Below are positions 4,256-63,592 of a stretch of DNA of 64,000 nucleotides, in pieces (position 1 is the stretch's first letter; every line of letters starts with the position of its first letter). The stretch is from Burkholderiales bacterium (GTDB lineage Bacteria; Pseudomonadota; Gammaproteobacteria; Burkholderiales; SHXO01). The position numbers were made by a program, and so were the translations under genes. The notes under the pieces were generated by a model that worked only from the letters and a program-made list of their open reading frames with translations, made no database searches and was not told the origin of the DNA. The stretch is taken from assembly GCA_036787045.1 (NCBI GenBank), contig DAIQQA010000003.1, positions 13,797-77,796 on the forward strand, in the 5' to 3' direction.

Positions 4256-4344
4256 AACGCAAAGGACGGCAAGGGGACACGAGTCTCCCTTCGTGACCTT
4301 AGTGGTGAATGCGGTTCTGCTTCCTTCTCTGCGTCCTCTGCGAT
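4256..4344. repeat. Degenerate family-A palindromic repeat arms between convergent genes
   Basis: aacgcaaaggacggcaaggggacacgag (4256-4283), cttcgtgaccttagtggtgaa (4289-4309), ctctgcgtcctctgcgat (4327-4344) resemble the family-A arms elsewhere in the window. Confidence 0.55.
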
Positions 4345-4373
4345 AGAACAGGTTTGTTCTTGACAAATACGGG

Positions 4374-4685
4374 CTAGCCACGCTCCCACATCACATCCGC
4401 GTTCTTCTTCGCAGCGCGCTCGAGAAGCTCGATGAGAGGGTGGGCGCGCTGGCGCAGCGACACAGGCATGTGCCCTTCCCGGCGATCCTCCTCATCGGCT
4501 TGCGTAGCCGGCAGTGAGGCGCCCTGCTCCAGTGCGCGAGTGAGCCGCCCGATCGCTGCCGGGATGTCCGGGGCGAGGATGGCGCTGGGCACCGTGCCGG
4601 AATGCCCCATGAGCTTGAGCAGTTGCACGGCTACATCGCCGAACATCGTGAGTGTGCCGACCTTGCTGTCGAACTTTACGAGCAT
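4374..4685 (-). CDS. DUF1840-like small protein (103 aa)
   Basis: MLVKFDSKVGTLTMFGDVAVQLLKLMGHSGTVPSAILAPDIPAA...VSLRQRAHPLIELLERAAK; ATG at 4685 inside the longer 283-aa ORF call. Confidence 0.75.
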   Translation of the reverse strand: MLVKFDSKVGTLTMFGDVAVQLLKLMGHSGTVPSAILAPDIPAAIGRLTRALEQGASLPATQADEEDRREGHMPVSLRQRAHPLIELLERAAKKNADVMWERG

Positions 4686-4813
4686 GCGGGACTCCGGGGG
4701 AAGTCGTGGATGCGCACGAGTATAGGCCCAAGCGCCGCGTTGGTGCAGGCGCCGGCCGCACAGCGGGCTGCTGATCGCTGTGCCCGGCCCAGGTACTTCA
4801 ACCCGTTGATTCC

Positions 4814-4849
4814 ACCTCTCACCACGAAGGCACGAAGACACGAAGAAAA
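4814..4849. repeat. Solo family-A arm (CACGAAG type)
   Basis: acctctcaccacgaaggcacgaagacacgaagaa matches the reverse complement of the 32094-32127 arm at 32/34 positions; no partner arm seen nearby. Confidence 0.75.
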
Positions 4850-4956
4850 CCGAAAGGACGAGAACAGGTGCGCCTTGCCGATGTCCACGTCTGCCGGGCG
4901 ATGTTTCGCAAGGACTGTGTCGCTGTACTAGCGATCGATCCAGGGATGTGCAGCGT

Positions 4957-5406
4957 TCAGGCGGCGCCGCGTGCGCGTTGCCGAGCCAGCATGCACTGGA
5001 CGTGGGGCACGTAGAGCAGGTTCGAGATCTTGCGCACGAGGTGGTCCTCGTACTGATCGAGACCGCCGTCTGCGTAGGCCACCCGCCACAGGTGCTCGAC
5101 GAAGCGGATGCGTTGGTCCATCTCGAAGCGGCGGTTGATGACCGATACCTGCGCGTAGTAGGAAGTGAGGCGGCCGGACCGGTGTGCAGCGTCGCCCAGC
5201 AGGGCATCCGCCCGCGATGTATCAAGCCCGACCAAGTCGGCTAGAGCAGCGCGCGCTGCCGCCAGATCCTCCTGCCGGACCTCGGCGTCCATGCGGGTCA
5301 TCTCGTAGAGCAGCGTGGCGATTGCGCCTTCGAGCGCGTGCTGTTCGAATGCCGGTGATTGTGCTTCCCGGGGCCGCGCGAGCAGCCTGGCGAGGTTCTT
5401 GAGCAT
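4957..5406 (-). CDS. TerB-family (tellurite-resistance-like) protein
   Basis: ATLLYEMTRMD...LWRVAYADGGLDQYEDHLVRKISNLLYVPH pattern typical of TerB-like proteins. Confidence 0.8.
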   Translation of the reverse strand: MLKNLARLLARPREAQSPAFEQHALEGAIATLLYEMTRMDAEVRQEDLAAARAALADLVGLDTSRADALLGDAAHRSGRLTSYYAQVSVINRRFEMDQRIRFVEHLWRVAYADGGLDQYEDHLVRKISNLLYVPHVQCMLARQRARGAA

Positions 5407-5587
5407 GGGCGGAGCAGGACGGTGAATCGAGTTCGAATGCGTGTATATCAGAGCGCCTGGACGGCGGGTAGTTCGTGTGCAGAGTTGCGACGCCGGTCCG
5501 GGCGTTCGATGCTGGGGAATACCCGGTTCGGAAACGCGTCGTGAGGGTCTGACTGGGGTACCGGCGCCAGGAGGCTGGCGCGCGATG

Positions 5588-6037
5588 CTATCTGACCGCG
5601 TAGCCCAGGGCGTTCAGCTGCTCGTAGAGCTGGCGCCGTGTGGCTGCGACATCCGCTGGGCGGTTATCGCGGAAGCGTCTCGCCTCGTCGGCCGTGTAAG
5701 GCCGGAAGTCCTGGGGCAGGGACTCCCCTGCGAACGTCGTGACGACGTAGTTGGTTACTGCCGCGCGCCGGTCATCGGGCAGGCCAGCATTCATGAGCCC
5801 GGGTACCTGCATCAGGAAGGCACGTCCCTCGGGCAAACGCAGAAAATGGCCCACTTGGTCACGGAAATCCGGGACGCCGAACTCCGGATGGCCGCTGCCA
5901 TCCATCGAGTGGCAGCCGGAGCAGTGCAGCACGTAGTCGTGCTCGCTGCCCTGGTAGGTCTTGACGTCGGCCCGGCCGGCGAATGCAACGCAACCAAGCA
6001 GCGCACTCGCGATGATCAGTGCTGGCCGAGTGCTCAT
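5588..6037 (-). CDS. Periplasmic monoheme cytochrome c
   Basis: Signal peptide then CSGCH heme motif; start overlaps the upstream cytochrome stop. Confidence 0.85.
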   Translation of the reverse strand: MSTRPALIIASALLGCVAFAGRADVKTYQGSEHDYVLHCSGCHSMDGSGHPEFGVPDFRDQVGHFLRLPEGRAFLMQVPGLMNAGLPDDRRAAVTNYVVTTFAGESLPQDFRPYTADEARRFRDNRPADVAATRRQLYEQLNALGYAVR

Positions 6038-13266: not shown

Positions 13267-13320
13267 GCCGTTACTCTAATCAGCCCGCGGGCGTGAGCAT
13301 GTTGTGTTGACGAACACCCT

Positions 13321-13506
13321 AACCACGGAGGATACGGGGACGCGGAGGAAACCGACTGTGTCCACGGCGCAAACCCGCCGACCCGGGACGCAGTCGTTTG
13401 TATCACTTCACGCCCGCACGGCCAGCTGTCCCGATGTCTGCTCTCCCGCCAGTTCTGGTGATTGGCTTCGGTCGCCCTCCGTGTCCACCGTGTTCTCCGT
13501 GGTGAA
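13321..13506. repeat. Family-A paired inverted element (CACGGAG type)
   Basis: Left arm aaccacggaggatacggggacgcggaggaaa (13321-13351); right arm ctccgtgtccaccgtgttctccgtggtgaa (13477-13506). Confidence 0.8.
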
Positions 13507-13535
13507 GGTCTTGCTTGAGGGCCTTGAGGACGGAC

Positions 13536-16462: not shown

Positions 16463-16647
16463 GAACCACGGAGGACACGGAGGAAAGTCGATGTGGCTCC
16501 AAGATCGCGAAGCTGCCCGGACCCTTGCAGGCAGCTGTGCATACGTCACGCGAAGTGAATTGATGTGCATCCGCTGCCGCCCGGCACGAACGATCCAGGC
16601 ACGCACATCTTCGAGCTCTCGCCTTCCTCCGTGTCCACCGCGGTTCA
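16463..16647. repeat. Family-A paired inverted element (CACGGAG type)
   Basis: Left gaaccacggaggacacggaggaaag (16463-16487); right ttcctccgtgtccaccgcggttca (16624-16647), whose terminal TCA is the TetR stop codon. Confidence 0.8.
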
Positions 16648-21483: not shown

Positions 21484-21516
21484 TGAACCGCAGAGACGCA
21501 GAGAGCGCGGAGGAAA
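21484..21516. repeat. Family-A arm (CGCAGAG type), solo
   Basis: tgaaccgcagagacgcagagagcgcggaggaaa. Confidence 0.75.
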
Positions 21517-21531: not shown

Positions 21532-21711
21532 CTAGCAGGCTGTTGAAAAATGCCGCCAACCAGTCCCCTCTCCCCTTGCGGGAGAGGGGTAGGGTGACGG
21601 GTCAGAACCGGATGCCGTGGAGACATGCCGTTGGAATGAGACGCCTGAGCGTTCACCCTCCCTCCGACCCTCTCCCGTCGGGAGAGAGGGCGCTTTTCAA
21701 CACCCCGCCAG
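21532..21711. mobile_element. MITE-like element, family D (CTAGCAGGCTGTTGAAAA termini), containing a family-B palindrome pair
   Basis: Left end ctagcaggctgttgaaaa; right end ttttcaacaccccgccag (15/18 inverted match). Inside: cccctctccccttgcgggagaggggtagggtgacggg (21565-21601) and ccctccctccgaccctctcccgtcgggagagaggg (21656-21690). Confidence 0.75.
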
Positions 21712-21752: not shown

Positions 21753-21802
21753 CGCCAAGACACCAAGGGGCCAACGGGTTTCCTTCGTGTCCTTCGTGGT
21801 AA
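21753..21802. repeat. Short family-A-like element
   Basis: cgccaagacaccaagggg ... tccttcgtgtccttcgtggtaa. Confidence 0.55.
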
Positions 21803-21835
21803 CCGAGGTTTGATTGCGTCTTGAGTAGCGATGCG

Positions 21836-23293
21836 ATGAGCGAAACCCCTGCGCCGGGCAAAGTGATCTGCGATGCGTGCCCGGTGCTGTGCCAGATCAG
21901 CGAGGGGCGTACCGGGGCGTGCGACCGCTGGGGGAACTTCGGCGGCAAGCTGACGCGGGTGGACCCGGTCGTGCTGTTCAGGAAGGTCGTGGGCGAGTCG
22001 GGGCAGGTTACCGAGTTCCTCGAGCAGAAGGACTGGGACGGGACCCCGATCTCGGACGCGCCGGTATTCGTGTCCGGCGTGGGCTCCGGCACCACTTACC
22101 CGGACTACAAGCCGGCACCCTTCATCGTCGGATCCCGCCACGAGGGCGTGGACATGGTCACGGTCGTGACCGAGGGCATCTTCAGCTACTGCAGCTTCAA
22201 GATCAAGATCGACACCGACCGCTGGCTCGGCCCGGAGCAAGCCACGGTGCGCTGCAAGGGCGAGGCGGCGGGTCACGTCACCACGATCGAGTACGGATCG
22301 CAGATGCTGTCGCTGGGCGGGGTGCACCACCTCACCGGCGGCAGCAAGAGGGAAGGTCGCGTCACCTGCGACATGATGATGGACCTCGGCAACAAGAAGC
22401 CGGTCGAGGTCGAAGTCGAGGGCGGCGCGCATGTGGTGATTCAGGCCGGCAAGGCGCCCATCGTCAACGGTGTGGAAGAGCAGCGCATGCGCGTGGGCTG
22501 CGGCTCGGCCACCATCGGGATCTTCGCCAAGCAGTGGCACGGCCACGTCGACGAGGTAGTCGTGGTGGACGATCACATCACCGGCATCCTCACCGAGCAC
22601 CAGGCAGGAAGGTTCCTCGCCATGCCGCCTTCCGGGATCAGGATCAAAGGCCGCAAGTCCACTCCGGGCCGCTACTTCCAGGTGGCCAACCCGGGCACCG
22701 GCTGGGGCGGTACCGACATCACCGACCCGCTGACCATCGTCACCGGCTTCGAGCCCAAGCTGGCGCGGCCCGGCAGCCGCATTCTGATGGTGTCCACCAC
22801 GGGGGAGGACTCTGCCTACTTCATCCTCGACGACAAACTGCGCATGACGCCCGCCGAGATGCCGGACGCGGTACGGAAGGTGGTCGAGCGCATCGGGGAG
22901 AACTGCGAGCCAGCGCTGTGCACGGTGCTGTTTCTCGCCGGCGCAGGCGGGAGCCTGCGCGCAGGTGTCACGGAGAACCCCGTGCGCCTCACGCGCTCGA
23001 TCAAGGATCTGCTGACCAAGGTGACCTGTGGCGGCGCGCCGGTGTACGTATGGCCGGGCGGCGGCATCACGGTGATGGTGGATGTCACGCGCATGCCCGA
23101 CAACTCCTTCGGCTGGGTGCCAACGCCTGCGATCGTCGCGCCCATCGAGTTCACCATGCGCCTGTCCGACTACGCTACATTGGGCGGGCATATGGACCGC
23201 GTGCGCACCGTCGAAGACGTGCTCAAGAGCGAGCGCGTGCGCGTGGTCGGCTGGGACGGGCTGAATCCGTGGCCGGTTGGGCGTGAGGCGTGA
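21836..23293 (+). CDS. hnr: 6-hydroxynicotinate reductase (Fe-S flavoprotein)
   Basis: N-terminal CDACPVLC..GACDRW cluster, PDYKPAPFIV, VTEGIFSYC, RMRVGCGSATIG, ENCEP; next to Mo-hydroxylase and in the same cluster as enamidase. Confidence 0.85.
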   Translation: MSETPAPGKVICDACPVLCQISEGRTGACDRWGNFGGKLTRVDPVVLFRKVVGESGQVTEFLEQKDWDGTPISDAPVFVSGVGSGTTYPDYKPAPFIVGSRHEGVDMVTVVTEGIFSYCSFKIKIDTDRWLGPEQATVRCKGEAAGHVTTIEYGSQMLSLGGVHHLTGGSKREGRVTCDMMMDLGNKKPVEVEVEGGAHVVIQAGKAPIVNGVEEQRMRVGCGSATIGIFAKQWHGHVDEVVVVDDHITGILTEHQAGRFLAMPPSGIRIKGRKSTPGRYFQVANPGTGWGGTDITDPLTIVTGFEPKLARPGSRILMVSTTGEDSAYFILDDKLRMTPAEMPDAVRKVVERIGENCEPALCTVLFLAGAGGSLRAGVTENPVRLTRSIKDLLTKVTCGGAPVYVWPGGGITVMVDVTRMPDNSFGWVPTPAIVAPIEFTMRLSDYATLGGHMDRVRTVEDVLKSERVRVVGWDGLNPWPVGREA

Positions 23294-23475
23294 GGCGTGA
23301 GGCGTGAGGCGTGAGGCGTGAGGCGTTCGATGATATGGCGAACCAAATAGCATACTCCCTCTCTCCCGCGAGCGGGGGAGAGGGCTGGGGTGAGAGGGAC
23401 CCCTCGCCCCTCACGCCTCATACCTCACCCACGGGATGCGGAGACGCTTACCGCCTCCCGCCTCCAGCCTCACCG
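23284..23475. repeat. Family-C heptamer element: (TGAGGCG)x6 left arm, inverted heptamer right arm, internal family-B palindrome
   Basis: Six perfect TGAGGCG copies (23284-23325); ctccctctctcccgcgagcgggggagagggctggggtgagaggg (23356-23398); inverted heptamers at 23405-23430 and 23452-23472. Confidence 0.9.
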
Positions 23476-24354
23476 AGCGGCGCCACGCGCGCGCGCTTCC
23501 CTGACGGCCGCCTACACTTCCACCACGGCCCGATCGATCTCGTCATCGGCGCAACCGGCGCGCCGGCGGCCATCGAAGCGGGGATGGAGCAGGCGTGGAC
23601 GCGATTCGAGTCGGTTCTGAGTGAACTGGTCGGCGAGTTGACGCTGCTGCGCACGCCGGTGCAGCACTCGCTTGGCGTCCGCGGGCCGATCGCACAGCGT
23701 ATGGTCGCAGCCTGCTTTCCTCATCGCGCGCAGTTCATCACCCCCATGGCGGCAGTGGCGGGCGCGGTCGCGGACGAGATCATCGAGTTCTTTCGCGCTC
23801 AGGCGGGTGTGCGCAGCGCGTACGTGAACAATGGCGGCGACATCGCCCTGCATCTGGCACACGATGACTGCTACCGGGTGGGCCTGCTTGCCGATCTGGG
23901 TCGGGTCAGGCCGCTCGAGCCCTGGCGGCTCGACGGCGATTTCGAGCTGCGGGCCGAGTCACCCGTGCGCGGTGTGGCTACCAGCGGCTGGCGCGGCCGC
24001 AGCTTCAGTCTGGGTATCGCAGACAGCGTCACCGTGCTGGCACGCAGCGCCGCCGAGGCGGATGCGGCCGCGACTATGATTGCCAACGCCGTAAACGTTG
24101 CAGACCCGGCGATCGTGCGCAAGCCTGCCTGTGACCTCAAAGACGACACTGATCTGGGAGACAGGCTGGTGACAGTCGAGGTCGGAGCGCTGTCGCATCG
24201 GCAGATCGACGCTGCGCTGACGGCCGGAGAGCAGCTCGCGCAACGTCTGCGAGAAGAAGGTACTATCGCGGCTGCCGTCTTGTGTCTGCAAGGTGCGGCG
24301 CAGGTGTGCGGGACCGGCGCAACACTGGGCGCGCGCAACGACTGCTGGGTTTGA
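23335..24354 (+). CDS. UPF0280 family / ApbE-like protein
   Basis: PDGRLHFHHGPIDL, FITPMAAVAGAVAD, YVNNGGDIA, GVATSGWRGRSFSLGIADSVTV, AATMIANAV. Start uncertain: the only in-frame starts lie inside the repeat element. Confidence 0.8.
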   Translation: MANQIAYSLSPASGGEGWGERDPSPLTPHTSPTGCGDAYRLPPPASPSGATRARFPDGRLHFHHGPIDLVIGATGAPAAIEAGMEQAWTRFESVLSELVGELTLLRTPVQHSLGVRGPIAQRMVAACFPHRAQFITPMAAVAGAVADEIIEFFRAQAGVRSAYVNNGGDIALHLAHDDCYRVGLLADLGRVRPLEPWRLDGDFELRAESPVRGVATSGWRGRSFSLGIADSVTVLARSAAEADAAATMIANAVNVADPAIVRKPACDLKDDTDLGDRLVTVEVGALSHRQIDAALTAGEQLAQRLREEGTIAAAVLCLQGAAQVCGTGATLGARNDCWV

Positions 24355-24433
24355 CTCGAGCGGTGCCGGCGCCGCCGTGCGGTTCCTCGCGGTCTGTGCG
24401 CCCCTGTGCCGAGGTGTGCTGAGTCAGCAGCGG

Positions 24434-25012
24434 ATGATCGAGATACGCGAAGTCTTCACCCAGGTGGAAGAGATCTTCCACGAGTTCGGCCCGCCCACGC
24501 AGCGGCCGCTCAAGCGTGGCGCCGTTGCAGCCGTGCTCACCAACCCCTTCGCGGGGCGCTACGAGCCGAACATCGTGCCGATGATGGAAGCACTTAGTCC
24601 ATTGGGTTTGGACATGTCGCGTCGGCTTCTCGCGGCCATGGCCGTGACGCCCGAGCAGATCGAGGGCTACGGCAAGGGCGCAATCGTGGGCGCCGCCGGC
24701 GAGCTCGAGCATGGTGCGCTCTGGCACGTCCCGGGCGGCTATGCGATGCGCGAGCTCCTGGGCGGCGCGAAAGCCATCGTGCCGTCCGCCAAGAAGGTGG
24801 GCGCCCCCGGAACCAAGCTCGACGTGCCGGTGACGCACATCAACGCGAGCTACGTCCGCAGCCACTTCGACGCGATGGAGGTGTACGTTCCCGGCGCACC
24901 GGCGGCCGACGAGTTGATCACCATCCTGGTGATGACCACCGGGCCGCGCGTGCACGAGCGGGTGGGCGGCTTGCGGGCGTCCGAGATCAAGGGCGCCGAC
25001 GGCCTGCGGTGA
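24434..25012 (+). CDS. AA_synth (DUF1185) family protein
   Basis: AAVLTNPFAGRY, EGYGKGAIVGAAGELEHGA, INASYVRSHFDAME, GPRVHERVGGL. Confidence 0.88.
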   Translation: MIEIREVFTQVEEIFHEFGPPTQRPLKRGAVAAVLTNPFAGRYEPNIVPMMEALSPLGLDMSRRLLAAMAVTPEQIEGYGKGAIVGAAGELEHGALWHVPGGYAMRELLGGAKAIVPSAKKVGAPGTKLDVPVTHINASYVRSHFDAMEVYVPGAPAADELITILVMTTGPRVHERVGGLRASEIKGADGLR

Positions 25013-25033
25013 GGTTCAGACAATGTAACACCC

Positions 25034-25234
25034 CAACGCAGGGGCGCAGAGAACGCGGAGGACGCAGAGGAAGAAGCCATGAAGAGGGACAGACGATAGG
25101 ACCAAGTCTGCGCGAAGACCAGCAACCGGGCGCCACGTAGGAGCATGGCTGACCGAAAGTGCAACCGAATAATATGCATGCGCAATAGAGTCATGCACGT
25201 GAATCGCTCTGCGTTCTCTGCGCCTCTGCGTTGA
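25034..25234. repeat. Family-A paired inverted element (CGCAGAG type)
   Basis: Left caacgcaggggcgcagagaacgcggaggacgcagag (from 25034); right ctctgcgttctctgcgcctctgcgttga (25207-25234). Confidence 0.85.
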
Positions 25235-25250
25235 GATTCTGGGGGGGAGA

Positions 25251-25835
25251 ATGAAAGCGAGCATCAGGAAAATCGTCGTCCAGGTGGACGAAATCCGTCA
25301 CGAGATGGGCCGCGATGTGAACCCGCCCACGCGGCGTGCTGTGGCGATGGCAGTCATTGCCAATCCCTTCGCTGCGCGCTACCAGGAGGACCTCACCGAG
25401 CTGATGGATATCGGCGAGGAGCTGGGCGGGCTGCTGGGAGAGCGCTGCGTGCAGGCGCTGGGGATCCAGCCGGCACAGGCGGAAAGCTACGGCAAAGCAG
25501 CCATTGTGGGCGAAGGCGGTGAGCTGGAGCACGCGGCCGCGATCCTGCACCCGAAGCTCGGTGCCCCGCTGCGCAAGGCCGTCGAGAGAGGTGCGGCGCT
25601 GGTACCCTCGGCCAAGAAGATGGGGACGTTGGGAACGGCCATCGACGTGCCCCTGGGGCACAAGGATGCGGCCTACGTCCGCAGCCACTTCGACGCGGTC
25701 GAGGCGCGAGTAAGCGACGCGCCGCGGCCGAACGAGATCGTGGTGGCGGTGGCCGTCACCGACAGCGGCCGGCCGCTGGCACGCGTGGGCGGGCTGTCCA
25801 AGCACGAGATTAAGGGCCAGGACGGGTTGCGCTGA
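25251..25835 (+). CDS. AA_synth (DUF1185) family protein, second paralogue
   Basis: AVIANPFAARY, ESYGKAAIVGEGGELEHAA, KDAAYVRSHFDAVE, GRPLARVGGL. Confidence 0.88.
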   Translation: MKASIRKIVVQVDEIRHEMGRDVNPPTRRAVAMAVIANPFAARYQEDLTELMDIGEELGGLLGERCVQALGIQPAQAESYGKAAIVGEGGELEHAAAILHPKLGAPLRKAVERGAALVPSAKKMGTLGTAIDVPLGHKDAAYVRSHFDAVEARVSDAPRPNEIVVAVAVTDSGRPLARVGGLSKHEIKGQDGLR

Positions 25836-25863
25836 CGTTCCCGACCGCAGAGGAATCCAGCCG

Positions 25864-27549
25864 ATGACCACCGGTATCGATGCCAAGCCGTGGCTGAAGA
25901 GCTACCCGCCCGGTGTGCCCGCCGAGCTGAAACCGTTGGAGTTCCAGTCGATTCCGCAGATGCTCGAGGCGAGCGTCAAGCGCTACCGCAACCAGCCCGC
26001 CTTCGAGAGCTTCGGCGTTCAGATCACGTTCGGCGAGCTCGACCGCCTCTCGCGGGACTTCGCCGCCTACCTGCAGAGCAAGCTGGGGCTGAAGAAAGGC
26101 GACCGCATCGCTGTCATGATGCCCAACATCCTCCAGTACCCGGTCGCGGTCTACGGGATCCTGCGCGCCGGGCTGGTGGTGGTCAGCGTGAACCCGCTGT
26201 ACACCGCGCGCGAGCTGGAGCATCAGCTCAAAGACTCCGGCGCCGTCGCGATCGTGATCTTCGAGAGCGCGGCGCACACTCTTCAGGAGGTCATCGCGCG
26301 CACCCCGGTCAGGCACGTCATCGTGGCTTCTGTCGGCGACATGCTGGGTTTTATCAAAGGCGGCCTGATCAACCTGGTGTTCCGCCAGGTCAAGAAGATG
26401 GTCAAGCCCTGGAGCATTCCCGGCGCAGTACGCTTTCCGCAAGCGCTCGCCGACGGCGCCGGAGCGCCCATGAATGCTTCGGCCCTGGCGGCGGACGACC
26501 TGGCCTTCCTGCAGTACACCGGGGGCACCACCGGGGTGTCGAAGGGGGCGATGCTGCAGCACCGCCACGTCCTGTCCAACGTCGAGCAGGTTCTTGCCTA
26601 CACCGGAAACACCGTGCGCCCGGGGCAGGAGGTCGCGATCGCACCCCTGCCTTTCTATCACATCCTGGCGCTGGTGCTGAACTGCATGATGTTCGTGCGC
26701 GGGGGCGGGTTGCAGATCCTGATTGCCAACCCGCGGGATATCCCGAATCTGGTCAAGACCCTGGGCAGCAGCCGCTTCACGTTCTTCGTCGGCGTCAACA
26801 CGCTGTTCAACGCGCTGATCCACAACGAGGCGTTCGCGAAAGTGGACTTCACCCACCTGCGCATGGCCGGGGGTGGCGGCGCGCCAGTTCAGTTGGCTGT
26901 GGCCAAGCGCTGGAAGGAGATTACCGGGCGGGTGCTCTCGGAAGGCTACGGCCTCACCGAAACGTCGGGCGCCGTGTCCATCAACCGGCAGGACATCGAG
27001 GAGCACACCGGCACGACCGGTCTGCCGCTGCCGGGCACGGAGGTCGAGATCCGCGATGAGGTCGAGCGCGCGCTGCCGCACGGCGCGGTCGGACAGGTGT
27101 TCGTGCGCGGACCGCAGGTCATGGCCGGCTACTGGCAGCGGCCGGACGAGACCGCGAAGGTGCTGCGCTCCGACGGCTGGCTCGCCACCGGCGACATGGG
27201 CCTGATCACACCGGAGGGCTATCTCAAGATCGTGGACCGCGTGAAGGACATGATCCTGGTGTCCGGCTTCAACGTCTACCCGAACGAGATCGAGGATGTG
27301 GTTGCGATGCACCCGGGCGTGCTGGAGGCCTGTGCCATCGGCGTGCCGGACGAGAACACCGGCGAGGGGGTCAAGCTGTTCGTGGTGCGCAAGGATCCCG
27401 CGCTCACTGCGCAGTCCTTGATCCAGCACTGTCGCGAGAATCTCACCGGCTACAAGGTCCCGCGGCATGTCGAGTTCCGCGACGCGCTGCCCAAGAGCCC
27501 GGTGGGGAAGATCCTGCGGCGCGAGCTGCGCGACGCACCTAAGGCGTGA
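25864..27549 (+). CDS. Acyl-CoA synthetase (FadD-like AMP-binding enzyme)
   Basis: YTGGTTGVSKG, EGYGLTET, TGDMG, DRVKDMILVSGFNVYPNEIE, PKSPVGKILRR. Confidence 0.92.
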   Translation: MTTGIDAKPWLKSYPPGVPAELKPLEFQSIPQMLEASVKRYRNQPAFESFGVQITFGELDRLSRDFAAYLQSKLGLKKGDRIAVMMPNILQYPVAVYGILRAGLVVVSVNPLYTARELEHQLKDSGAVAIVIFESAAHTLQEVIARTPVRHVIVASVGDMLGFIKGGLINLVFRQVKKMVKPWSIPGAVRFPQALADGAGAPMNASALAADDLAFLQYTGGTTGVSKGAMLQHRHVLSNVEQVLAYTGNTVRPGQEVAIAPLPFYHILALVLNCMMFVRGGGLQILIANPRDIPNLVKTLGSSRFTFFVGVNTLFNALIHNEAFAKVDFTHLRMAGGGGAPVQLAVAKRWKEITGRVLSEGYGLTETSGAVSINRQDIEEHTGTTGLPLPGTEVEIRDEVERALPHGAVGQVFVRGPQVMAGYWQRPDETAKVLRSDGWLATGDMGLITPEGYLKIVDRVKDMILVSGFNVYPNEIEDVVAMHPGVLEACAIGVPDENTGEGVKLFVVRKDPALTAQSLIQHCRENLTGYKVPRHVEFRDALPKSPVGKILRRELRDAPKA

Positions 27550-27555
27550 AAATCT

Positions 27556-27754
27556 TGAACCACGGAGGACACGGTGGACACGGAGGAAAGCTCGTGTTTG
27601 CGTTTTTTGCTGCACGCTGGCGACCCAGGGTCGAGCCTCGATTGATCCCGAGCGGAGCGTCGCCATCGTAGCCATAGCTAAGCTGCGCCCTCCAACTCCC
27701 GTCCTTCTCACGAATCAGGGTTTCCTCCGTGCCCACCGTGTCCTACGTGGTTCA
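27556..27754. repeat. Family-A paired inverted element (CACGGAG type)
   Basis: Left tgaaccacggaggacacggtggacacggaggaaa (27556-27589) and right arm 27721-27754 are reverse complements at 32/34 positions. Confidence 0.9.
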
Positions 27755-28946
27755 GAAGTTCCTGTTCATGGCAGCTGTGGCAATGCTTGCGTTGCCTGCA
27801 GCCGCCCAGCAGCCGATCCGTATCGGGGAGATCAGCAGCTACTCCGCGGTACCGGCGTTCACCATTCCCTATCGCAACGGCTGGGAGCTGGCCGTCGAGG
27901 AGGTGAACGCAGCAGGCGGGGTGCTGGGGCGCAAGCTGGAGGTGATCTCGCGCGACGACGGCGGCAAGCCGGACGATGCCACCCGGCATGCCAACGAGCT
28001 GCTCACCAGCCACAAGGTCGATCTGTTGGCGGGCACTTTCCTCTCCAACGTCGGCCTGGCTGTCGGCGACATCGCCCGGCGCAACAAGGTGGTGTTCGTG
28101 GCGGCCGAGCCCCTGACCGACGCGCTGGTCTGGGAGCAGGGCAACCGCTACACGTTCCGGCTGCGGCCGAGCACCTACATGCAGGCCGCCATGCTGGCCG
28201 AGGAAGCAGCCAAGCTGCCGGCTAAGCGCTGGGTGACGCTGGCGCCCAACTACGAGTATGGGCAATCGGCGGTGGCGAGCTTCAAGGAGCTGCTAAAGGC
28301 GAAGCGACCCGACGTCGAGTTCGTCGGGGAGCAATGGCCGGCGCTGGGCAAGCTCGAGGCGGGGGCGACTGTGCAAGCGCTCTCCGCGGCCAGGCCGGAG
28401 GCGATCTTCAACGTCACCTTCGGTGCGGACCTGACCAAGTTCGTGCGCGAGGGGAACCTGCGCGGGCTGTTCGAAGACCGCGCCGTAGTCAGCATGCTGT
28501 CCGGCGAGCCGGAATACCTCGACCCGCTCAAGGACGAGACGCCGGTGGGATGGATCGTCACCGGCTATCCGTGGGAGCAGATCAAGCTGCCGGCGCACGA
28601 GAAGTTCGTCCAGGCCTACGAGAAGCGCTTCGAGGATACGCCCCGGCTCGGTTCGGTGGTCGGTTATACCACCTTCATGGCGATCGCCGGAGCCCTGAAG
28701 AAGGCCGGCTCGACCGACAGCGAGAAACTGATCACGGCCTTCCGCGGCCTCGAGGTGCAAAGCGTGTTCGGTCCGATCACGTTCCGCGCCATCGATCAGC
28801 AGTCCACGCTGGGCGCCTTCGTCGGCAGGCTCGACCTCAGGGGCCGCAAGGGTGTGATGGTGGACTGGCGGTATGCGGACGGCAAGGACTACATGCCGCC
28901 GGATGCCGTGGTGAGGAAGAAGCGGCCGGCGGAAGCGATGAAGTAA
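27747..28946 (+). CDS. Branched-chain-amino-acid-type ABC substrate-binding protein
   Basis: Signal peptide MVQKFLFMAAVAMLALPAAA (GTG 27747 or ATG 27768); NGWELAVEEVNAAGGVLGRK, APNYEYGQSA, TGYPW. Confidence 0.9.
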   Translation: MVQKFLFMAAVAMLALPAAAQQPIRIGEISSYSAVPAFTIPYRNGWELAVEEVNAAGGVLGRKLEVISRDDGGKPDDATRHANELLTSHKVDLLAGTFLSNVGLAVGDIARRNKVVFVAAEPLTDALVWEQGNRYTFRLRPSTYMQAAMLAEEAAKLPAKRWVTLAPNYEYGQSAVASFKELLKAKRPDVEFVGEQWPALGKLEAGATVQALSAARPEAIFNVTFGADLTKFVREGNLRGLFEDRAVVSMLSGEPEYLDPLKDETPVGWIVTGYPWEQIKLPAHEKFVQAYEKRFEDTPRLGSVVGYTTFMAIAGALKKAGSTDSEKLITAFRGLEVQSVFGPITFRAIDQQSTLGAFVGRLDLRGRKGVMVDWRYADGKDYMPPDAVVRKKRPAEAMK

Positions 28947-28949
28947 TCG

Positions 28950-29146
28950 TGAGGCGCGAGGCGAGAGGCGTGAGGCGAGCGGTGCCGCCGCGCAGCATCC
29001 GCGCATTCCGGGGCGTCGCAGGGGGCGGACTGCACAGCGTTTCGGCTGCGACCGTCGCGTACCTGGGCCACGCGTTGCGGCGCCACCCGTCGGAAGCCAA
29101 CGCAGCGCAAGGCTTTCGCCTCACGCCTCGCGCCTCATGCCTCACG
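28950..29146. repeat. Family-C heptamer inverted element
   Basis: tgaggcg cgaggcg agaggcg tgaggcg (28950-28977) versus cgcctcacgcctcgcgcctcatgcctcacg (29117-29146). Confidence 0.85.
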
Positions 29147-30996
29147 CAGACGTGACCGTCTACCTCATCCAGTTCCTCACCGGCCTGTCCCACGCTGCGA
29201 CCCTCTTCCTGGTCGCGTCGGGCCTGTCCATCATCTTCGGCGTGACCCGCATCGTGAACTTCGCGCACGGGTCGTTTTACATGCTGGGCGCCTACGCAGC
29301 CTACAGCGCGACCGAGCTCCTGATGGAGCGGCTCGGCGCGCCGCTGGGTTTCTGGTCCGGGATTGTGGTGGCTGCTGTAGCGGTAGGTCTGGTCGGCGTG
29401 GTGATGGAAGTCCTGTTGCTGCGCCGGATCTACCGCGCACCCGAGCTGTTCCAGCTGCTCGCGACCTTCGGCGTGGTGCTGGTGGTGCAGGATGTCGCGT
29501 TGGCGATCTGGGGCCGGGAGGACTTGTTCGCCCCCCGCGCGCCGGGTTTGAAGGGGACGGTGGAGATTCTGGGCGAGCGCTTCCCGCAGTATCACCTGTT
29601 CCTGATCGTGCTGGGACCGATCGTGCTGGGGCTGCTGTGGCTACTGTTCCACCGCTCGCGCTGGGGTGTGCTGGTACGGGCTGCGACCCAGGACCGCGAG
29701 ATGGCCGGTGCACTGGGTGTCAACGAGCGATGGCTGTTCACGAGCGTGCTGTTCCTCGGCTCGTTCCTGGCCGGGCTGGGGGGCGCGCTGCAGATCCCCA
29801 AGGAGGCCGTGAACCTGCAGATGGACATCCACATCATCGCCGAGGCATTCGTGGTGGTAGTGATCGGCGGGATGGGCAGCGTGACCGGTGCTTTTCTCGC
29901 GTCCCTGCTGGTGGGTCTGCTGTCGGCCTTCGGGATCCTCATATTCCCGCAGGTGACGCTCGTGCTGACCTTTCTGGTGATGGCGGTGGTGCTGGTCATC
30001 CGGCCGTACGGACTGCTGGGGAAGCCGGAGGGACGCACGCGGGTCTCTGCGCAGTCGGCCGAGCTGCCCATCCGTCCTGCGAGCCGGCCGCTGCTGGGCG
30101 GCGCGGCGGCGTTGCTTGGCCTTCTCCTGCTGCTGCCGGCGCTGACTGGCGAGTACGCGCAGCTGATCGCCATCGAGATCCTCATCCTCGCGCTTTTCGC
30201 CGCCAGCCTGCACTTCATCATGAGCATCGGTGGGCTGGTGTCCTTCGGTCACGCCGTCTACTTCGGCATCGGCGCCTATGCCTGTGCACTGCTGGTGAAG
30301 CACTTGGCCTCGCCGATGCCCATCAACCTGGTCGCGGCGCCGCTCGCCGCGGCAGCGGTCGCGGTCCTGTTCGGCTGGTTCTGCATCCGGCTGTCGGGCG
30401 TCTATCTCGCCATGCTCACGCTCGCCTTCGCCCAGATCGTCTGGTCGGTGGCTTTCACGTCGGGCTGGACCGGAGGCGACAACGGCGTTCTGGGCGTCTG
30501 GCCTCCGGCCTGGCTCGGGTCGAAGACGGCCTACTACTATTTCACGCTGCTCCTAGTCGCCGGGGGTCTGCTGCTGCTCCGGCGCGTGATCTTTTCGCCG
30601 TTCGGCTACGCACTGCGCGCCGGCCGGGACTCGCCGCTGCGCTCGGATGCGATCGGCATCGACGTGCGCCGCCAGCAGTGGGCAGCGTTCGTGCTGGCCG
30701 GTGCCGCGGCCGCGCTGGCCGGCGCTCTGCACGCCTACCACAAAGGCAGCGTATTCCCCGCCGTGCTCGCCATCCCGCAGTCGGTGGACGCGCTGGTCAT
30801 GGTGCTGCTCGGCGGGGTGCAGACGCTCAGCGGCCCGGTCGTGGGAGCCGCCGTCTATCATGCCCTCCAGACCGAAGTGATGCGAAGCACCGACTACTGG
30901 AGGTTCATTCTCGGGGCCGTGATCATTCTTCTGGTGGTGGCGTTCCCGCAGGGGATCGCAGGGTTCGCGCAGCGCTTCGTGAGGCGTGAGGCGTGA
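29137..30996 (+). CDS. Fused LivH-LivM ABC permease
   Basis: SIIFGVTRIVNFAHGSFYMLGAY (LivH part) and GLVSFGHAVYFGIGAY, RLSGVYLAMLTLAFAQ (LivM part) in one 619-aa ORF. Confidence 0.9.
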   Translation: MPHADVTVYLIQFLTGLSHAATLFLVASGLSIIFGVTRIVNFAHGSFYMLGAYAAYSATELLMERLGAPLGFWSGIVVAAVAVGLVGVVMEVLLLRRIYRAPELFQLLATFGVVLVVQDVALAIWGREDLFAPRAPGLKGTVEILGERFPQYHLFLIVLGPIVLGLLWLLFHRSRWGVLVRAATQDREMAGALGVNERWLFTSVLFLGSFLAGLGGALQIPKEAVNLQMDIHIIAEAFVVVVIGGMGSVTGAFLASLLVGLLSAFGILIFPQVTLVLTFLVMAVVLVIRPYGLLGKPEGRTRVSAQSAELPIRPASRPLLGGAAALLGLLLLLPALTGEYAQLIAIEILILALFAASLHFIMSIGGLVSFGHAVYFGIGAYACALLVKHLASPMPINLVAAPLAAAAVAVLFGWFCIRLSGVYLAMLTLAFAQIVWSVAFTSGWTGGDNGVLGVWPPAWLGSKTAYYYFTLLLVAGGLLLLRRVIFSPFGYALRAGRDSPLRSDAIGIDVRRQQWAAFVLAGAAAALAGALHAYHKGSVFPAVLAIPQSVDALVMVLLGGVQTLSGPVVGAAVYHALQTEVMRSTDYWRFILGAVIILLVVAFPQGIAGFAQRFVRREA

Positions 30997-31162: not shown

Positions 31163-31170
31163 TCAGAACG

Positions 31171-32127: not shown

Positions 32128-32133
32128 AGTGCT

Positions 32134-36321: not shown

Positions 36322-36374
36322 CCGCGCCGGTGTGCGAGCCGCCGCAGATTGCCGACTCCACGTCCGCGGCGATA

Positions 36375-36640: not shown

Positions 36641-37522
36641 GTGGCTAAGGAGATCTTTTGCGCGTTCGGCGTGGATGTGGACGCAGTCGCTGGCTGGATC
36701 GGCTCTTACGGCGGCGAAGACTCGCCGGACGACATCTCGCGCGGCATGTTCGCGGGCGAGGTCGGGATGCCGCGGCTGGTGAACCTGTTCAAGCGGCTGG
36801 ACATCAAGACCACCTGGTTCATTCCCGGCCACTCGATCGAGACCTTCCCGGAGCAGACCGCGATGGTGGTCGATGCCGGTCACGAGATCGGCATCCACGG
36901 CTACACCCATGAGAACCCGATCGCAATGACGCCCGAGCAGGAAGAAGCCGTGCTCGACAAGTGTATCGAGCTGGTCACCAAGGTGTCGGGCCGCCGGCCG
37001 ACCGGCTACGTGGCGCCGTGGTGGGAGTTCAGCCCGGTCACCAACGAGATGCTGCTCAAGAAAGGCATCAAGTACGACCACAGCCTGATGCACAACGACT
37101 ACACACCCTATTACGTGCGCGTCGGCGACAAGTGGACCAACATCGACTACTCCAAGCATCCCCAGGAGTGGATGGTGCCGCTCACCCGCGGCAAGGAAAC
37201 CGATCTGATCGAGATCCCCGGCAGCTGGTATCTGGACGACCTGCCGCCGATGATGTTCATCAAGAAGGCGCCCAACTCGCACGGCTTCGTCAATCCGCGC
37301 CACTTGGAGGAGATGTGGCGCGACCAGTTCGACTGGGTCTATCGCGAGATGGACTACGCGGTGTTCACCTTCACCATCCATCCGGACGTATCGGGCCGGC
37401 CGCAGGTGCTGCTGATGCTCGAGCGTTTGTTCAACCACGTCATCCGGCACCCGGGAGTGAAGTTCACCACCTTCGACGACATCGCCAACGATTTCGCCCG
37501 CCGCTCCCCGCGCAAGAAGTAG
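36641..37522 (+). CDS. Polysaccharide deacetylase family protein (CE4; HP0310/PuuE-like)
   Basis: [48 protein letters not shown]; GTG 36641 after GGAGGAG. Confidence 0.88.
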
Positions 37523-37529
37523 CGGCTGC

Positions 37530-37730
37530 GCAGCTGTCGCGACGGAGGGTCACTGCGCGGAGATCGGCGAGGTGATCATAGGCAAGAAGAAAGGGCGCAC
37601 GTCCGATGCGGAGGTCACGCTGTTCGACTCCACCGGCATCGCCCTGCAGGATTCCGCCAGCATCCCGCTCGAGCATGAGTGCGCGCTGGCGGCCGGAGTA
37701 GGCATCGAGAAGAAGATGATTTCGACTTGA
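37530..37730 (+). pseudogene. C-terminal remnant of an ornithine cyclodeaminase/mu-crystallin family gene
   Basis: Start-less frame AEIGEVIIGKKKGRTSDAEVTLFDSTGIALQDSAS..ALAAGVG ending TGA 37728-37730; not in the ORF track. Confidence 0.75.
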
Positions 37731-55713: not shown

Positions 55714-55768
55714 CGCAAAGCATGCGGCGCAATAGGCTGCGCTGTTGCACCCTGGAGGAGCCGTTGCA

Positions 55769-55793
55769 TTTCCTCCGCGTGCTCTGCGGTGAA
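55769..55793. repeat. Solo family-A right arm
   Basis: tttcctccgcgtgctctgcggtgaa. Confidence 0.6.
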
Positions 55794-58606: not shown

Positions 58607-58609
58607 GTA

Positions 58610-58690
58610 TGAGGCGGGAGGGTCGAGGCGCGAGGCACGAGGGTCGAGGCGCAAGGCCAAGTCGCAAGGCTCGAGCCTCGAGCCTTGCCG
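58610..58690. repeat. Degenerate family-C element
   Basis: tgaggcgggagggtcgaggcgcgaggcacgagggtcgaggcg ... ctcgagcctcgagccttg. Confidence 0.6.
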
Positions 58691-60341: not shown

Positions 60342-60356
60342 GGCTACTGCAACAGC

Positions 60357-60531
60357 TCAACGCAAAGACGCAAAGGACGCAAAGAGAAGCGAGAGCACGC
60401 CAGGCTCTCGGCTGGCTTTCTTGGGGCGTCGCGTGCACGCCGAGACCGCGGCGAGGAGTCGGTCGTCGTGCCACGTTGTCCTTGCATCGCTTTCCTTTGC
60501 GGCCTTTGCGCTCTTTGCGCCTTTGCGTTGA
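60357..60531. repeat. Family-A paired inverted element (CGCAAAG type)
   Basis: Left tcaacgcaaagacgcaaaggacgcaaagag (60357-60386); right ctttgcggcctttgcgctctttgcgcctttgcgttga (60495-60531). Confidence 0.88.
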
Positions 60532-60545
60532 GATGTAAGGGGTAT

Positions 60546-61613: not shown

Positions 61614-61643
61614 TTACTGCTTACTCAAGCCCAGGAAGCGCGC

Positions 61644-61823
61644 TCACCACGAAGGACACGAAGGACACGAAGAAAAACAAGCGGAGGGGCACTACGCTGA
61701 GCGGGAGTCGGTTGACGTGGCTTCCACGCGGTGGCTTGCATTACCACACTTGCCAACCCGTCAAGGAGGAACCTGAGCTTCCCTGGGCCTTCCTTCGTGT
61801 TCCTTCGTGTCCTTCGTGGTTCA
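61644..61823. repeat. Family-A paired inverted element (CACGAAG type)
   Basis: Left tcaccacgaaggacacgaaggacacgaagaa (61644-61674); right ccttcgtgttccttcgtgtccttcgtggttca (61792-61823). Confidence 0.88.
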
Positions 61824-61840
61824 CGCGGTTCGCAGTCGAG

Positions 61841-62326
61841 CTAAATGGGTTTGAAGTACTCGAAGGGCTCGCGGCAGTCGAGGCAGCGATAAGTGGCCTT
61901 GCACGCGGTGGAGCCGAACTCCGACAGCCGCTCGGTCTGCTGCGAGCCGCAGCGCGGGCAGGCGAGACGGGGGACGAAGTGCAGCGGGCGTGGTCCCGCC
62001 GGTGCGACGCCGCTCGGGGGCACGATGCCGTAGGCCCGCAGCCTCTCGGCGGCCTCCGGGGCGATCCAGTCCGTGGTCCAGGGAGGCGAAAGGCGCGTCT
62101 CGATATCAACGTGCTCAACCCCTGCCTGCAGCAAGGCGTCGCGGATGGACGTCGCGATCACTTCGGTTGCGGGACAGCCCGAGTAGGTCGGCGTGACCAC
62201 GACCGTGACGGCGTTTGCGTCGGCGCGGATTTCGCGCACGATGCCGAGCTCGCACACCGAGATCACCGGGATCTCCGGGTCGGGCACAGCGCGCAGCGCA
62301 TCCCATGCCTGGGCTTCCGTTACCAC
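61841..62326 (-). CDS. paaD: Phenylacetyl-CoA epoxidase subunit D
   Basis: VPDPEIPVISVCELG, TPTYSGCPA, SPPWTTDW, CPRCGS, FGSTACKA.YRC..C.EPFEYFKPI. Confidence 0.93.
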   Translation of the reverse strand: MVTEAQAWDALRAVPDPEIPVISVCELGIVREIRADANAVTVVVTPTYSGCPATEVIATSIRDALLQAGVEHVDIETRLSPPWTTDWIAPEAAERLRAYGIVPPSGVAPAGPRPLHFVPRLACPRCGSQQTERLSEFGSTACKATYRCLDCREPFEYFKPI

Positions 62327-62333
62327 TGGTGCC

Positions 62334-63086
62334 TCACCACTGTAGGCCAGGATAGGTGCGCTGCATGTACTGCATCTCGGCCAAGAGATGTCCCATGTGC
62401 TCGCTGTGCATGCCGCCCTTGCCGCGGGAACGGAAAGGCGTGGGTTCGGGGATACGCAGCGTGGCCTCTCCCAGGACGGGGCGCACCGTGTCCTCCCATG
62501 GACCTTGGAGTGAGCCGGCCGGAACGCCGAACCCGTCGGCGGCAGCAGCCTCGTCCAGCGCATCCGCCGCGAAGAACTCGCCGGTGTAGGGCCACAGTAA
62601 ATCGAGCGCAGCCTGCATGCGCGCATGGGACTCCTCGGTGCCGTCGCCCAGGCGTACGGTCCAGTCCACCGCGTGGCGCAGGTGGTAGCGGCTCTCCTTG
62701 ATGCTCTTCCCGGCGATCGCCGCCAGCTCGCTGTCGCGGGACCGCTGCAGCGCTTCCCATAGGTGCAGCTGGTAGGCACCGAAAAGCAGATTGCGCGTCA
62801 CGGTCCTGCCGAAGTCGCCGTTGGGCAGCTCCACCAGCGTGAAGTTGCGATACTCGGACTCCGCACGCAGGAAGGCGAGCTGGTCTTCGCCGCGTCCTTT
62901 GCCTTCCAGCTTGCCGGCATGGGCGAGCAGCAACCGCGCCTGGCCGATCAGATCGAGCGCGACGTTGGTGAGCGCGAGATCCTCCTCCAGCACCGGACCG
63001 TGCCCGCACCACTCCGACAGGCGCTGGCCGAGGATCAGAGGGTTGTCGGCGAGGCAAAGTACGTAGTCGAATCGAGTGGTTGACAT
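62334..63086 (-). CDS. paaC: Phenylacetyl-CoA epoxidase subunit C
   Basis: LGQRLSEWCGHGPVLEED, ELPNGDF, KESRYH, GDGTEESH, HSEHMGHLLAEMQ. Confidence 0.95.
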   Translation of the reverse strand: MSTTRFDYVLCLADNPLILGQRLSEWCGHGPVLEEDLALTNVALDLIGQARLLLAHAGKLEGKGRGEDQLAFLRAESEYRNFTLVELPNGDFGRTVTRNLLFGAYQLHLWEALQRSRDSELAAIAGKSIKESRYHLRHAVDWTVRLGDGTEESHARMQAALDLLWPYTGEFFAADALDEAAAADGFGVPAGSLQGPWEDTVRPVLGEATLRIPEPTPFRSRGKGGMHSEHMGHLLAEMQYMQRTYPGLQW

Positions 63087-63118
63087 CTAGATTGCTCAGA
63101 AGAACGCCGCCTGGCCCC

Positions 63119-63406
63119 TCACATGTGATCCACTTCATCCGGCAGCTTGTAGAAGGTCGGATGCCGATAGATCTTGTCTTCCGCCGGATCGAACATCTCC
63201 GGCTTGGCGTCCGGGTCGGAAGCGTGGATATGATCTGCGCGCACCACCCAGATGCTCACCCCTTCCAGCCTGCGCGTGTAGATGTCGCGGGCGTTCTGCA
63301 GCGCCAACTTCGCGTCGGGCGCGTGCAGGCTGCCGCAGTGCTTGTGATCCAGGCCGTTCTTGCTGCGGATGAAGACTTCCCACAGCGGCCATTCCTTTCT
63401 ATCCAT
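63119..63406 (-). CDS. paaB: Phenylacetyl-CoA epoxidase subunit B
   Basis: WPLWEVFIR..GLDHKHCGSLHA, ARDIYTRR.EGVSIWVV, YRHPTFY. Confidence 0.95.
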   Translation of the reverse strand: MDRKEWPLWEVFIRSKNGLDHKHCGSLHAPDAKLALQNARDIYTRRLEGVSIWVVRADHIHASDPDAKPEMFDPAEDKIYRHPTFYKLPDEVDHM

Positions 63407-63433
63407 TGGTTCCCTTTCTAATGCTGCTAACCA

Positions 63434-63592
63434 TCACCGCAAAGACGCAAAGGCGCAAAGGAGTCGCAAAGAAGGCAACCAGTTAGGCGTACCTCATGCA
63501 TCCAGTCAGGGGATTGCGCATGCCCTTTGGCCACCCTGGTGATCGGAGTCATCCTTGGCGTTTCCTTTGCGTCTTCGCGCCTTTGCGGTTCA
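63434..63592. repeat. Family-A paired inverted element (CGCAAAG type)
   Basis: Left tcaccgcaaagacgcaaaggcgcaaagg (from 63434); right ccttggcgtttcctttgcgtcttcgcgcctttgcggttca (63553-63592). Confidence 0.85.

Follow-up and report, generated by a model that had tools for sequence, protein, structure and literature searches.

Heptamer-array inverted repeats in a Burkholderiales contig and their probable kinship with GxxExxY nuclease cassettes

The window analyzed here, a 64,000-nucleotide (nt) stretch of a contig from a Burkholderiales bacterium (DAIQQA010000003.1), carries many copies of a short inverted-repeat element, here termed family A, in the spacers between its genes. An initial annotation had described eight complete elements and a set of solo or degenerate arms; every one of them is present where it was placed, and all are intergenic. 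Our analysis indicates that these elements are very probably gene-less versions of the arms that, in other bacteria, enclose genes for small proteins of the GxxExxY family. Nine independent contigs, one of them from the metagenome-assembled genome (MAG) GCA_964470675.1, are 99.7% to 100% identical to the window over the parts they cover. The window belongs to a Burkholderiales population of freshwater or wetland sediment metagenomes, and the closest named protein homologs come from Burkholderiales MAGs. An assembly artifact is ruled out, since the same sequence occurs in nine independent assemblies and since long-read MAGs and closed isolate genomes also show the elements.

A gene cluster at 24293–37549 (locus L001) encodes two AA_synth proteins, an AMP-binding ligase, a Liv-type ATP-binding cassette (ABC) transporter (binding protein, fused permease, and two ATPases), an amidohydrolase, an isochorismatase, and a DUF3830 protein. 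A complete family-A element with CGCAGAG cores (25031–25238) separates the two AA_synth genes, and the orthologous junction is also filled in four related operons (L209–L212). Another (27556–27754; CACGGAG cores with a mirrored CACGGTG middle unit) lies between the AMP-binding and periplasmic binding-protein genes, and the two ABC ATPase genes are separated by a third (31954–32134; CACGAAG cores). Of the six spacers in the run from the second AA_synth to the second ATPase gene, five carry an element, either of family A or of a second family, B, that the initial annotation did not include. The elements at 13316–13512, 60352–60536, and 61640–61826 each lie between two minus-strand genes; the first has CACGGAG, TACGGGG, and CGCGGAG in its left arm and the reverse complement of CACGGAG, CACGGTG, and CACGGAG in its right, the second has CGCAAAG cores (three in one arm and four in the other), and the last has three CACGAAG cores per arm. 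The element at 16463–16646 (CACGGAG cores, arms 138 nt apart) sits between convergent genes and touches both stop codons, and that at 63433–63592 has four CGCAAAG cores per arm.

The incomplete copies are more varied. A degenerate composite at 4256–4345 has outer CGCAAAG/CGCAGAG-type arms around a short inner CACGAG...CTTCGTG...GTGAA hairpin, and a solo purine arm on the plus strand at 4814–4850 (CTCAC followed by three CACGAAG cores) has no partner arm downstream. A further plus-strand purine arm (21484–21512; CGCAGAG, CGCAGAG, CGCGGAG) has its nearest pyrimidine arm 270 nt away, of a different variant and with another inverted-repeat element in between; this minus-strand arm (21774–21805, the reverse complement of two CACGAAG cores) lies just upstream of a gene at 21821. 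A solo pyrimidine arm at 55764–55792 (minus strand) is the reverse complement of CGCAGAG and CGCGGAG.

In each family-A arm a TTMAC end motif is followed by two to four 7-nt cores, C-R-C-R-R-A-G, and the purine arm is always 5′; a complete element reads end motif, cores, purine-rich inner border (GGAAA), interior, and mirrored arm. End motifs in the window are GAAC, TCAC, TCAA, and TAAC, and core spacers of 1–2 nt give a period of 8–9 nt (TRF). The arms are 23–41 nt long and 80% to 94% complementary to one another, the pairing of 32 out of 34 positions reported initially being that of the element at 27556 (34 nt, 94%). A two-unit pattern matches the window 36 times, as against 6.5 ± 2.7 in 100 dinucleotide shuffles, none of which reaches 36. 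Clean arms are all intergenic, and two-unit near-matches within genes look like chance occurrences. The elements fill their spacers tightly, often starting 5–20 nt from a stop codon; the flanking genes are on the same strand for seven of the eight complete copies, convergent for one, and divergent for none. Two statements of the initial annotation concerned the arms and interiors of single elements, and both hold. The two arms use the same predominant variant in 8/8 complete elements (three CACGGAG, two CACGAAG, two CGCAAAG, and one CGCAGAG), for which the chance under random pairing is 3! × 2! × 2! × 1!/8! = 6e-4; the interiors (93–144 nt) show no mutual alignment and are AT-richer, with a G+C content of 50% to 67% versus 66.9% for the whole window.

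The family is widespread. A scan of GTDB species-representative genomes with the two-unit pattern CACGRAGGACACGRAGGA found at least 119 such stretches, and the matches listed fall in Acidobacteriota, Planctomycetota, Gemmatimonadota, Chloroflexota, Bacteroidota, Pseudomonadota (several classes), Spirochaetes, a cyanobacterium, and others. Chance hits within coding sequence, such as that in Pseudarthrobacter, account for some of the listed stretches; the majority share the paired-arm layout. When arms of at least two cores and less than 400 nt apart were counted as pairs, 79 pairs among the matches listed ran from purine to pyrimidine arm and 5 the reverse, with interior lengths forming a continuum from 12 to 376 nt. 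A pooled profile of 154 ends places T-T-M-A-C directly outside the outermost core, and the inverted repeat often runs 6–12 nt further outward in sequence specific to the element. A search of Rfam at gathering score and at E ≤ 1 returned nothing on the elements, its sole match at E ≤ 1 being unrelated (35619–35674), and no correspondence emerged with any catalogued repetitive extragenic palindromic (REP) sequence, miniature inverted-repeat transposable element (MITE), or Rfam family. Integron attC sites, which have RYYYAAC...GTTRRRY core sites around promoterless cassettes, were rejected as candidates: the ends are only partly AAC/GTT-like (CTTGAAC and GTTCAGA at 27556), and the flanked genes form a coherent Liv-type operon.

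The suggestion of the initial annotation that similar arms flank GxxExxY genes elsewhere proves to be correct. Arms 376–480 nt apart enclose an open reading frame (ORF) of about 120 amino acids at L047, L049, and L109, and such an ORF abuts an arm at L055, L070, and L108. Five of these six proteins were scored against models and match TIGR04256 ("GxxExxY protein") at E values of 1e-36 to 1e-44, two of them also matching PF13366 (PDDEXK_3); the sixth (L049) is a member of PF13366 cluster P0121. The arm-flanked genes score as PF13366/TIGR04256 only, and not as the Y1 HUH transposase known as RAYT (REP-associated tyrosine transposase). The association was also approached from the protein side, by picking 80 metagenomic GxxExxY loci on protein similarity with repeats ignored. 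In 73 of these the flanks were 100 nt or longer on both sides, and of the 73, strict arms were present on both sides in 42, on one side in 17, and on neither in 14, so that at least 59 carry arms right beside the start codon, the stop codon, or both. Several of the 14 strict-negative loci carry other units (CATGAAG, CACCAAGG, CACAGAT, and, in L150 and L152, the GTGAGGC type).

Three cultured isolates carry complete cassettes. The closed genome of Lacimicrobium alkaliphilum (CP013650) has TTCAC, three CACGAAG cores, ATG ... TAA, three inverted cores, and GTGAA; in Bacteroides finegoldii (L214, OY725952) the cassette lies between radA and a gene for a flavin adenine dinucleotide-dependent protein, and in Sphingomonas parapaucimobilis (L215, CP155749) between fabD and fabG. 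In the orientation of the gene, the purine arm stops between 1 and about 40 nt short of the start codon, and the pyrimidine arm sets in a few nucleotides past the stop codon. All cores hold an RAGGA-like stretch, but with a distance between last core and start codon that varies from about 1 to over 40 nt, Shine-Dalgarno mimicry and a CsrA site were rejected as explanations.

Gene-less copies occur in several configurations. At L108, a mini-element retains in its interior the 3′ end of a GxxExxY gene and lies adjacent to a full cassette; it is thus a deletion derivative. This remnant, and the continuity of interior lengths, would agree with an account in which only full cassettes insert and the gene-less copies are scars left by deletion of the gene in place, with no mobilization in trans. 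That account seems unlikely to us, as a remnant is found in none of the eight window interiors and as the window holds roughly one arm-bearing site per 4 kb (families A and B together) and yet no gene. It also sits poorly with dispersed gene-less copies at different sites in some Betaproteobacteria (L080, twice; L046; L064; L077), which share a noncoding interior of about 140 nt in either orientation; such a conserved interior was seen in this sub-family and not among the window copies. Elements nested within the interior of another occur at L038, L094, and L125.

Comparison with the orthologous operons L209–L212, whose AMP-binding proteins are 91%, 89%, 88%, and 79% identical to that of the window, shows gain or loss of elements at fixed positions. 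The junction between the two ATPase genes, which holds the element at 31954–32134 in the window, is empty in L210 (an 11-nt spacer) and L212 (an ATGA overlap). The junctions holding the family-B elements at 28948–29146 and 30980–31162 are both empty in L210 and L212, and the former is filled in L211. Empty sites in close relatives, which the initial annotation had named as a check, are thus found at three junctions that are filled in the window. L210 and L211 are long-read assemblies from ENA in which the permease, binding-protein, and MoCoBD genes are each split, apparently by frameshift errors, and only their spacer lengths and sequences were therefore used. Just one core-like sequence is present in each empty site (CACGGTA where the window has its family-A element, GGCGTGA in both family-B cases), a hint, from these three cases, of a preferred target or a seed.

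In all five genomes the AMP-binding and binding-protein genes are separated by an element, with CACGGAG cores in the window and CACAGAG cores in the relatives. The interior of the window copy is 48% identical to those of the relatives, the level of shuffled sequence, whereas the relatives are 63% to 65% identical among themselves; third codon positions of the adjoining gene show an identity of 0.70–0.72 between the window and the relatives. As the interior has fallen to shuffled identity and the core variant differs, the copy at 27556–27754 must have been replaced as a whole, both arms and interior.

The arms co-vary in a particular way. For 79 gene-less elements and 43 cassettes (122 in all, from many phyla), the two arms agree in the three variable purines of the core at 91% of positions in the gene-less elements and 93% in the cassettes, compared with 65% and 55% after shuffling (0 of 1,000 shuffles reach the observed values), which excludes random pairing of arm variants. 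Inter-core spacers agree between arms at 62% and 43%, indistinguishable from the shuffled 58% and 37%. Neighboring cores of a single arm share 92% and 89% of their variable positions, while neighboring spacers are the same in 33% and 14% of cases. Variation in the core is confined to the three purine positions and consists of transitions only; conservation across phyla covers the skeleton C-C--AG and the TTMAC motif. One cassette has passed vertically into three lineages (L134, L135, and L140; gene 72% to 80% identical, flanks 73% to 83%), in one of which five of six cores have switched between A and G at the same position, with the remaining core positions unchanged.

Because the spacers drift and the cores are uniform and matched, the conserved unit is the heptamer core on both arms and not a continuous stem. 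The earlier view that pairing, not sequence, is conserved therefore stands in part only and not in its original wording: the outward stem extension of 6–12 nt does co-vary and a purine always faces a pyrimidine, but the skeleton and TTMAC are themselves conserved across phyla and the spacers show no co-variation. The overall pattern fits repeated recognition sites for one trans-acting specificity and is a poor fit with selection for pairing only.

The initial annotation had offered a structured RNA as an alternative, and the elements could in principle be kept for their pairing, as REP-like stabilizers of messenger RNA (mRNA), RNase III sites, or translational-coupling attenuators, with the nuclease gene incidental. 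Hairpin predictions give −70 to −125 kcal/mol for either strand, complementary sequence specific to each element prolongs the stems outward, and all copies lie in transcribed spacers downstream of genes, none between divergent genes in the window or among 13 listed pairs in Geobacter metallireducens. The alternative is nonetheless distinctly unlikely and is not favored here, because mismatches between cores show no clear strand-specific excess of G:U (11 G·T versus 14 A·C in the mRNA sense of the cassettes; 35 versus 23 in the gene-less set). The lack of co-variation in the spacers, the identity of the core across phyla, which pairing alone does not require, the same operon junctions standing empty in close relatives, and the absence of an Rfam match also count against it.

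A local origin, in which slippage expands a seed heptamer and template switching produces the inverted copy with no mobility, is improbable. It would draw on the single core-like sequences in the empty sites and on the left arm of a family-B element (23280–23326), which differs by −2, +1, or +2 heptamers (GGCGTGA) among contigs that are otherwise 99.8% to 100% identical; arms also change by slippage. Adjacent cores are, however, 89% to 92% alike while adjacent spacers are identical only in 14% to 33% of cases, so that the units are not simple recent duplicates, and many phyla share this end motif and core, placed around one gene family.

The only precedent found in the open-access literature is the annotation by Aklujkar et al. 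(2009; PMC2700814) of 21 such opposite-strand pairs in G. metallireducens as "class 2" putative sites for integration host factor (IHF) or HU, with variable spacing and three tandem copies of TCTCCGTS[Y] each; the listed pairs all lie between consecutive genes. TCTCCGTS[Y] is the reverse complement of CACGGAGA, and class 2 is apparently the same thing as family A, although it was described in one genome only, read as protein-binding sites, and given no link to GxxExxY or mobility. In open-access full text the repeat sequences themselves occur in no relevant paper, and no link of the arms to GxxExxY genes or mobility was found; GxxExxY, PF13366, and TIGR04256 appear there in passing mentions or table entries, none on repeats. 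That the pairs serve as binding sites for a host nucleoid protein or global regulator such as IHF or HU is very improbable, given that the annotation was a suggestion made without data, that the cores are presumably unlike the IHF consensus WATCAANNNNTTR, and that the sites are gained and lost between close relatives in one conserved operon and enclose GxxExxY genes across phyla.

The GxxExxY protein has the features of a nuclease of the PD-(D/E)XK superfamily. D67 and K79 are invariant and E77 is present in at least 90% of sequences, forming the PD-(D/E)XK signature, together with the N-terminal G-x-x-E-x-x-Y. An AlphaFold model (predicted local distance difference test score 81.6; predicted template modeling score 0.77) shows the alpha-alpha-beta-beta-beta-alpha-beta core of that fold, and a sequence search of PDB found no GxxExxY homolog. 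The GxxExxY/PF13366 family comprises at least 8,000 clusters and very many metagenome variants; a survey from 2012 gave the function of PDDEXK_3 as unknown and noted "multiple transfers" between divisions (PMC3424549). Carriage by plasmids or phages was rejected as an explanation, with no GxxExxY in phage records and 8 among 72,556 records for plasmids.

Taken together, these observations suggest a scheme in which a GxxExxY nuclease acts on arms of this kind. A full cassette comprises TTMAC and two to five CRCRRAG cores (each with a spacer of 1–3 nt), the gene of about 120 amino acids, and inverted cores with GTKAA; the copies in the window have either lost that gene or never had it. A nuclease encoded elsewhere in the genome may act on them in trans, recognizing the heptamer cores on both arms, either as duplex DNA or as a folded-back strand, and cutting close to the element's outer edge; the break would then be repaired from another copy (homing-like conversion), or the element reinserted, so that it ends up in an intergenic spacer. 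In this proposal both ends must fit one nuclease specificity, which would confine every core of the two arms to a single variant and leave the spacers free to drift. The architecture, the association with the gene, the empty and replaced orthologous sites, the nesting, the deletion derivative, and the co-variation statistics are direct observations; we infer nuclease activity, core binding, and mobilization in trans from the sequence patterns, and regard this mechanism by itself as marginally favored. The statement as a whole, that the window elements are gene-less members of GxxExxY cassettes, gained, replaced, and kept uniform in trans by that nuclease, is probable. The non-autonomous family envisaged at the outset is supported. 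There is a fair chance that the elements are a distinct class. The fuller description of that class, as selfish elements across many phyla with a GxxExxY nuclease of about 120 amino acids as their sole gene, heptamer-array ends, nuclease-driven copying, gene-less populations, and a private purine code, is put forward tentatively and falls somewhat short of probable.

Several points weigh against this interpretation. No GxxExxY gene or detectable remnant is present in the 64-kb window (the best six-frame hidden Markov model match has E = 1.6), the gene is absent from all Burkholderiales loci retrieved, and no GxxExxY protein is known to bind, cleave, or transpose DNA. The 80% of sampled loci with arms derives from the 80 loci most similar to queries already associated with arms and may not hold family-wide. 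Foldseek matches of the model to PDB are weak (E ≥ 0.02, template modeling score ≤ 0.48), though nearly all are to PD-(D/E)XK nucleases; the neighbors include PvuRts1I, Cas4 SSO0001, the R2 endonuclease domain, an annotated fdxN-element excision-controlling factor, and Bax1. The elements show no consistent target-site duplication (48 of 77 have no flanking direct repeat, and in the rest it is short and of mixed length). Four family-A variants and family B occur in one window, and therefore several nuclease specificities, or a tolerant one, would be needed. Protein clade predicts the core variant weakly, the nearest neighbor having the same variant in 24 of 70 cases versus about 21% expected (permutation p ~0.02), and no specificity residue beyond phylogeny was found, the mutual-information signals following phylogeny, chiefly at the N-terminal end in CACGAAG-clade proteins.

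The layout of purine arm, interior, and pyrimidine arm recurs in family B, built there on a GTGAGGC heptamer core. Its members in the window lie at 23275–23429 (with the GTGAGGC core), at 28948–29146 between the binding-protein and permease genes, and at 30980–31162 between the permease and ATPase genes; a further copy is present in a relative of the window (L211, 7586–7716). The variable array at 23280–23326 begins at the 3′ end of an ORF (21877–23286), and the next ORF (23311–24354) starts inside it. The GTGAGGC core with one spacer base also flanks the GxxExxY genes of L150 and L152. At 58608–58690, some nine heptamers of GAGGC type (CGAGGCG, CGAGGCA, CGAGGGT) form a solo array directly beside a minus-strand start codon; after it come a short CAAGGCTCGAG/CTCGAGCCTTG hairpin and a stem rich in G+C, CCGCCCGAC...GTCGGGCGG.

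Two family-B interiors (23355–23400 and 31045–31085) contain a separate hairpin module, CCCTCTCCC-loop-GGGAGAGGG with TGGGGTGAG after it, which also occurs twice as an inverted pair (21545–21700) between the mismatched family-A arms at 21484 and 21774; its pattern gives five overlapping matches at two places, versus 0.23 matches expected. A CCTCC-rich palindrome at 35619–35674 is related to this module. In other phyla, further short-unit arrays lie beside family-A arms, with units TTTCACG/TTTCACT (L010, 1380–1470), CACGAAT/CACGAGT (L026, 5270–5360), GCCGAAG (L021, 3250–3900), and GACGCAAAA (L119, 7900–7950); L021 has a composite of about 150 nt that is repeated in tandem. These arrays suggest a wider range of unit types.

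Among known systems, the REP sequences, their paired form (REPIN), and the associated RAYT transposase are the closest analog. As in that system, short intergenic inverted repeats occur in high copy number, a single small nuclease gene is flanked by its own repeats, gene-less copies far outnumber the gene, target-site duplication is absent, arms co-vary, and divergent promoter regions are avoided. The elements nevertheless fall outside it, because enzyme and repeat architecture differ: the cassette protein is of the PD-(D/E)XK type (PF13366), whereas RAYT is an HUH/Y1 enzyme (PF01797), and a REP is a single imperfect palindrome of 20–40 nt with a GTAG or CGTC head, whereas the arms here are tandem heptamer arrays, with neither head seen at the element ends. 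They differ also in that the same arm core recurs across many phyla, alongside at least 8,000 GxxExxY clusters. IS110-family elements are known to target REPs. An element of that family, ISGme8, targets a sister class of the G. metallireducens repeats (PMC2700814).

The GGGAATC arrays of Xanthomonas form 70–75 convergent inverted pairs per genome and vary in length between species (Rehm et al. 2015, PMC4692102). These arrays and the short tandemly repeated repetitive sequences of cyanobacteria resemble family A as intergenic arrays of 7-nt units; they have other units, were studied as G-quadruplex formers, and have no known associated gene. MITEs of the DDE type share terminal inverted repeats, which the elements here do have, as well as derivation by internal deletion from a parent that carries a gene, nested insertions, and polymorphic insertion sites, but the elements lack target-site duplications and a DDE transposase, and their ends are tandem arrays. 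Homing endonucleases offer another parallel, as I-Ssp6803I is a free-standing PD-(D/E)XK homing endonuclease. In both cases a small PD-(D/E)XK nuclease would be the sole gene of a selfish element, with break-and-copy spread, which would explain the replaced resident copy at the AMP-binding/binding-protein junction; homing genes, in contrast, lie in introns or at one target site, with neither repeat arms nor gene-less derivatives.

GxxExxY/PDDEXK_3 is a very large family whose function is listed as unknown, and its link to the arms provides a function that can be tested, for which the conserved housekeeping neighborhoods occupied in the cultured strains of B. finegoldii and S. parapaucimobilis are good experimental entry points. 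The link also accounts for a type of intergenic repeat that is common among bacteria of soils and sediments, and would add a PD-(D/E)XK counterpart to the relationship between REPs and RAYT. Elements inside conserved operons, such as those for liv-type transporters or fabD-fabG, could affect operon expression and MAG quality, and they probably contribute to the short GxxExxY contigs found in metagenome assemblies. If the core variants encode nuclease specificity, the three variable purines would amount to a simple code that keeps each sub-family private, and the elements would offer a compact natural model for the co-evolution of a protein and its DNA sites.

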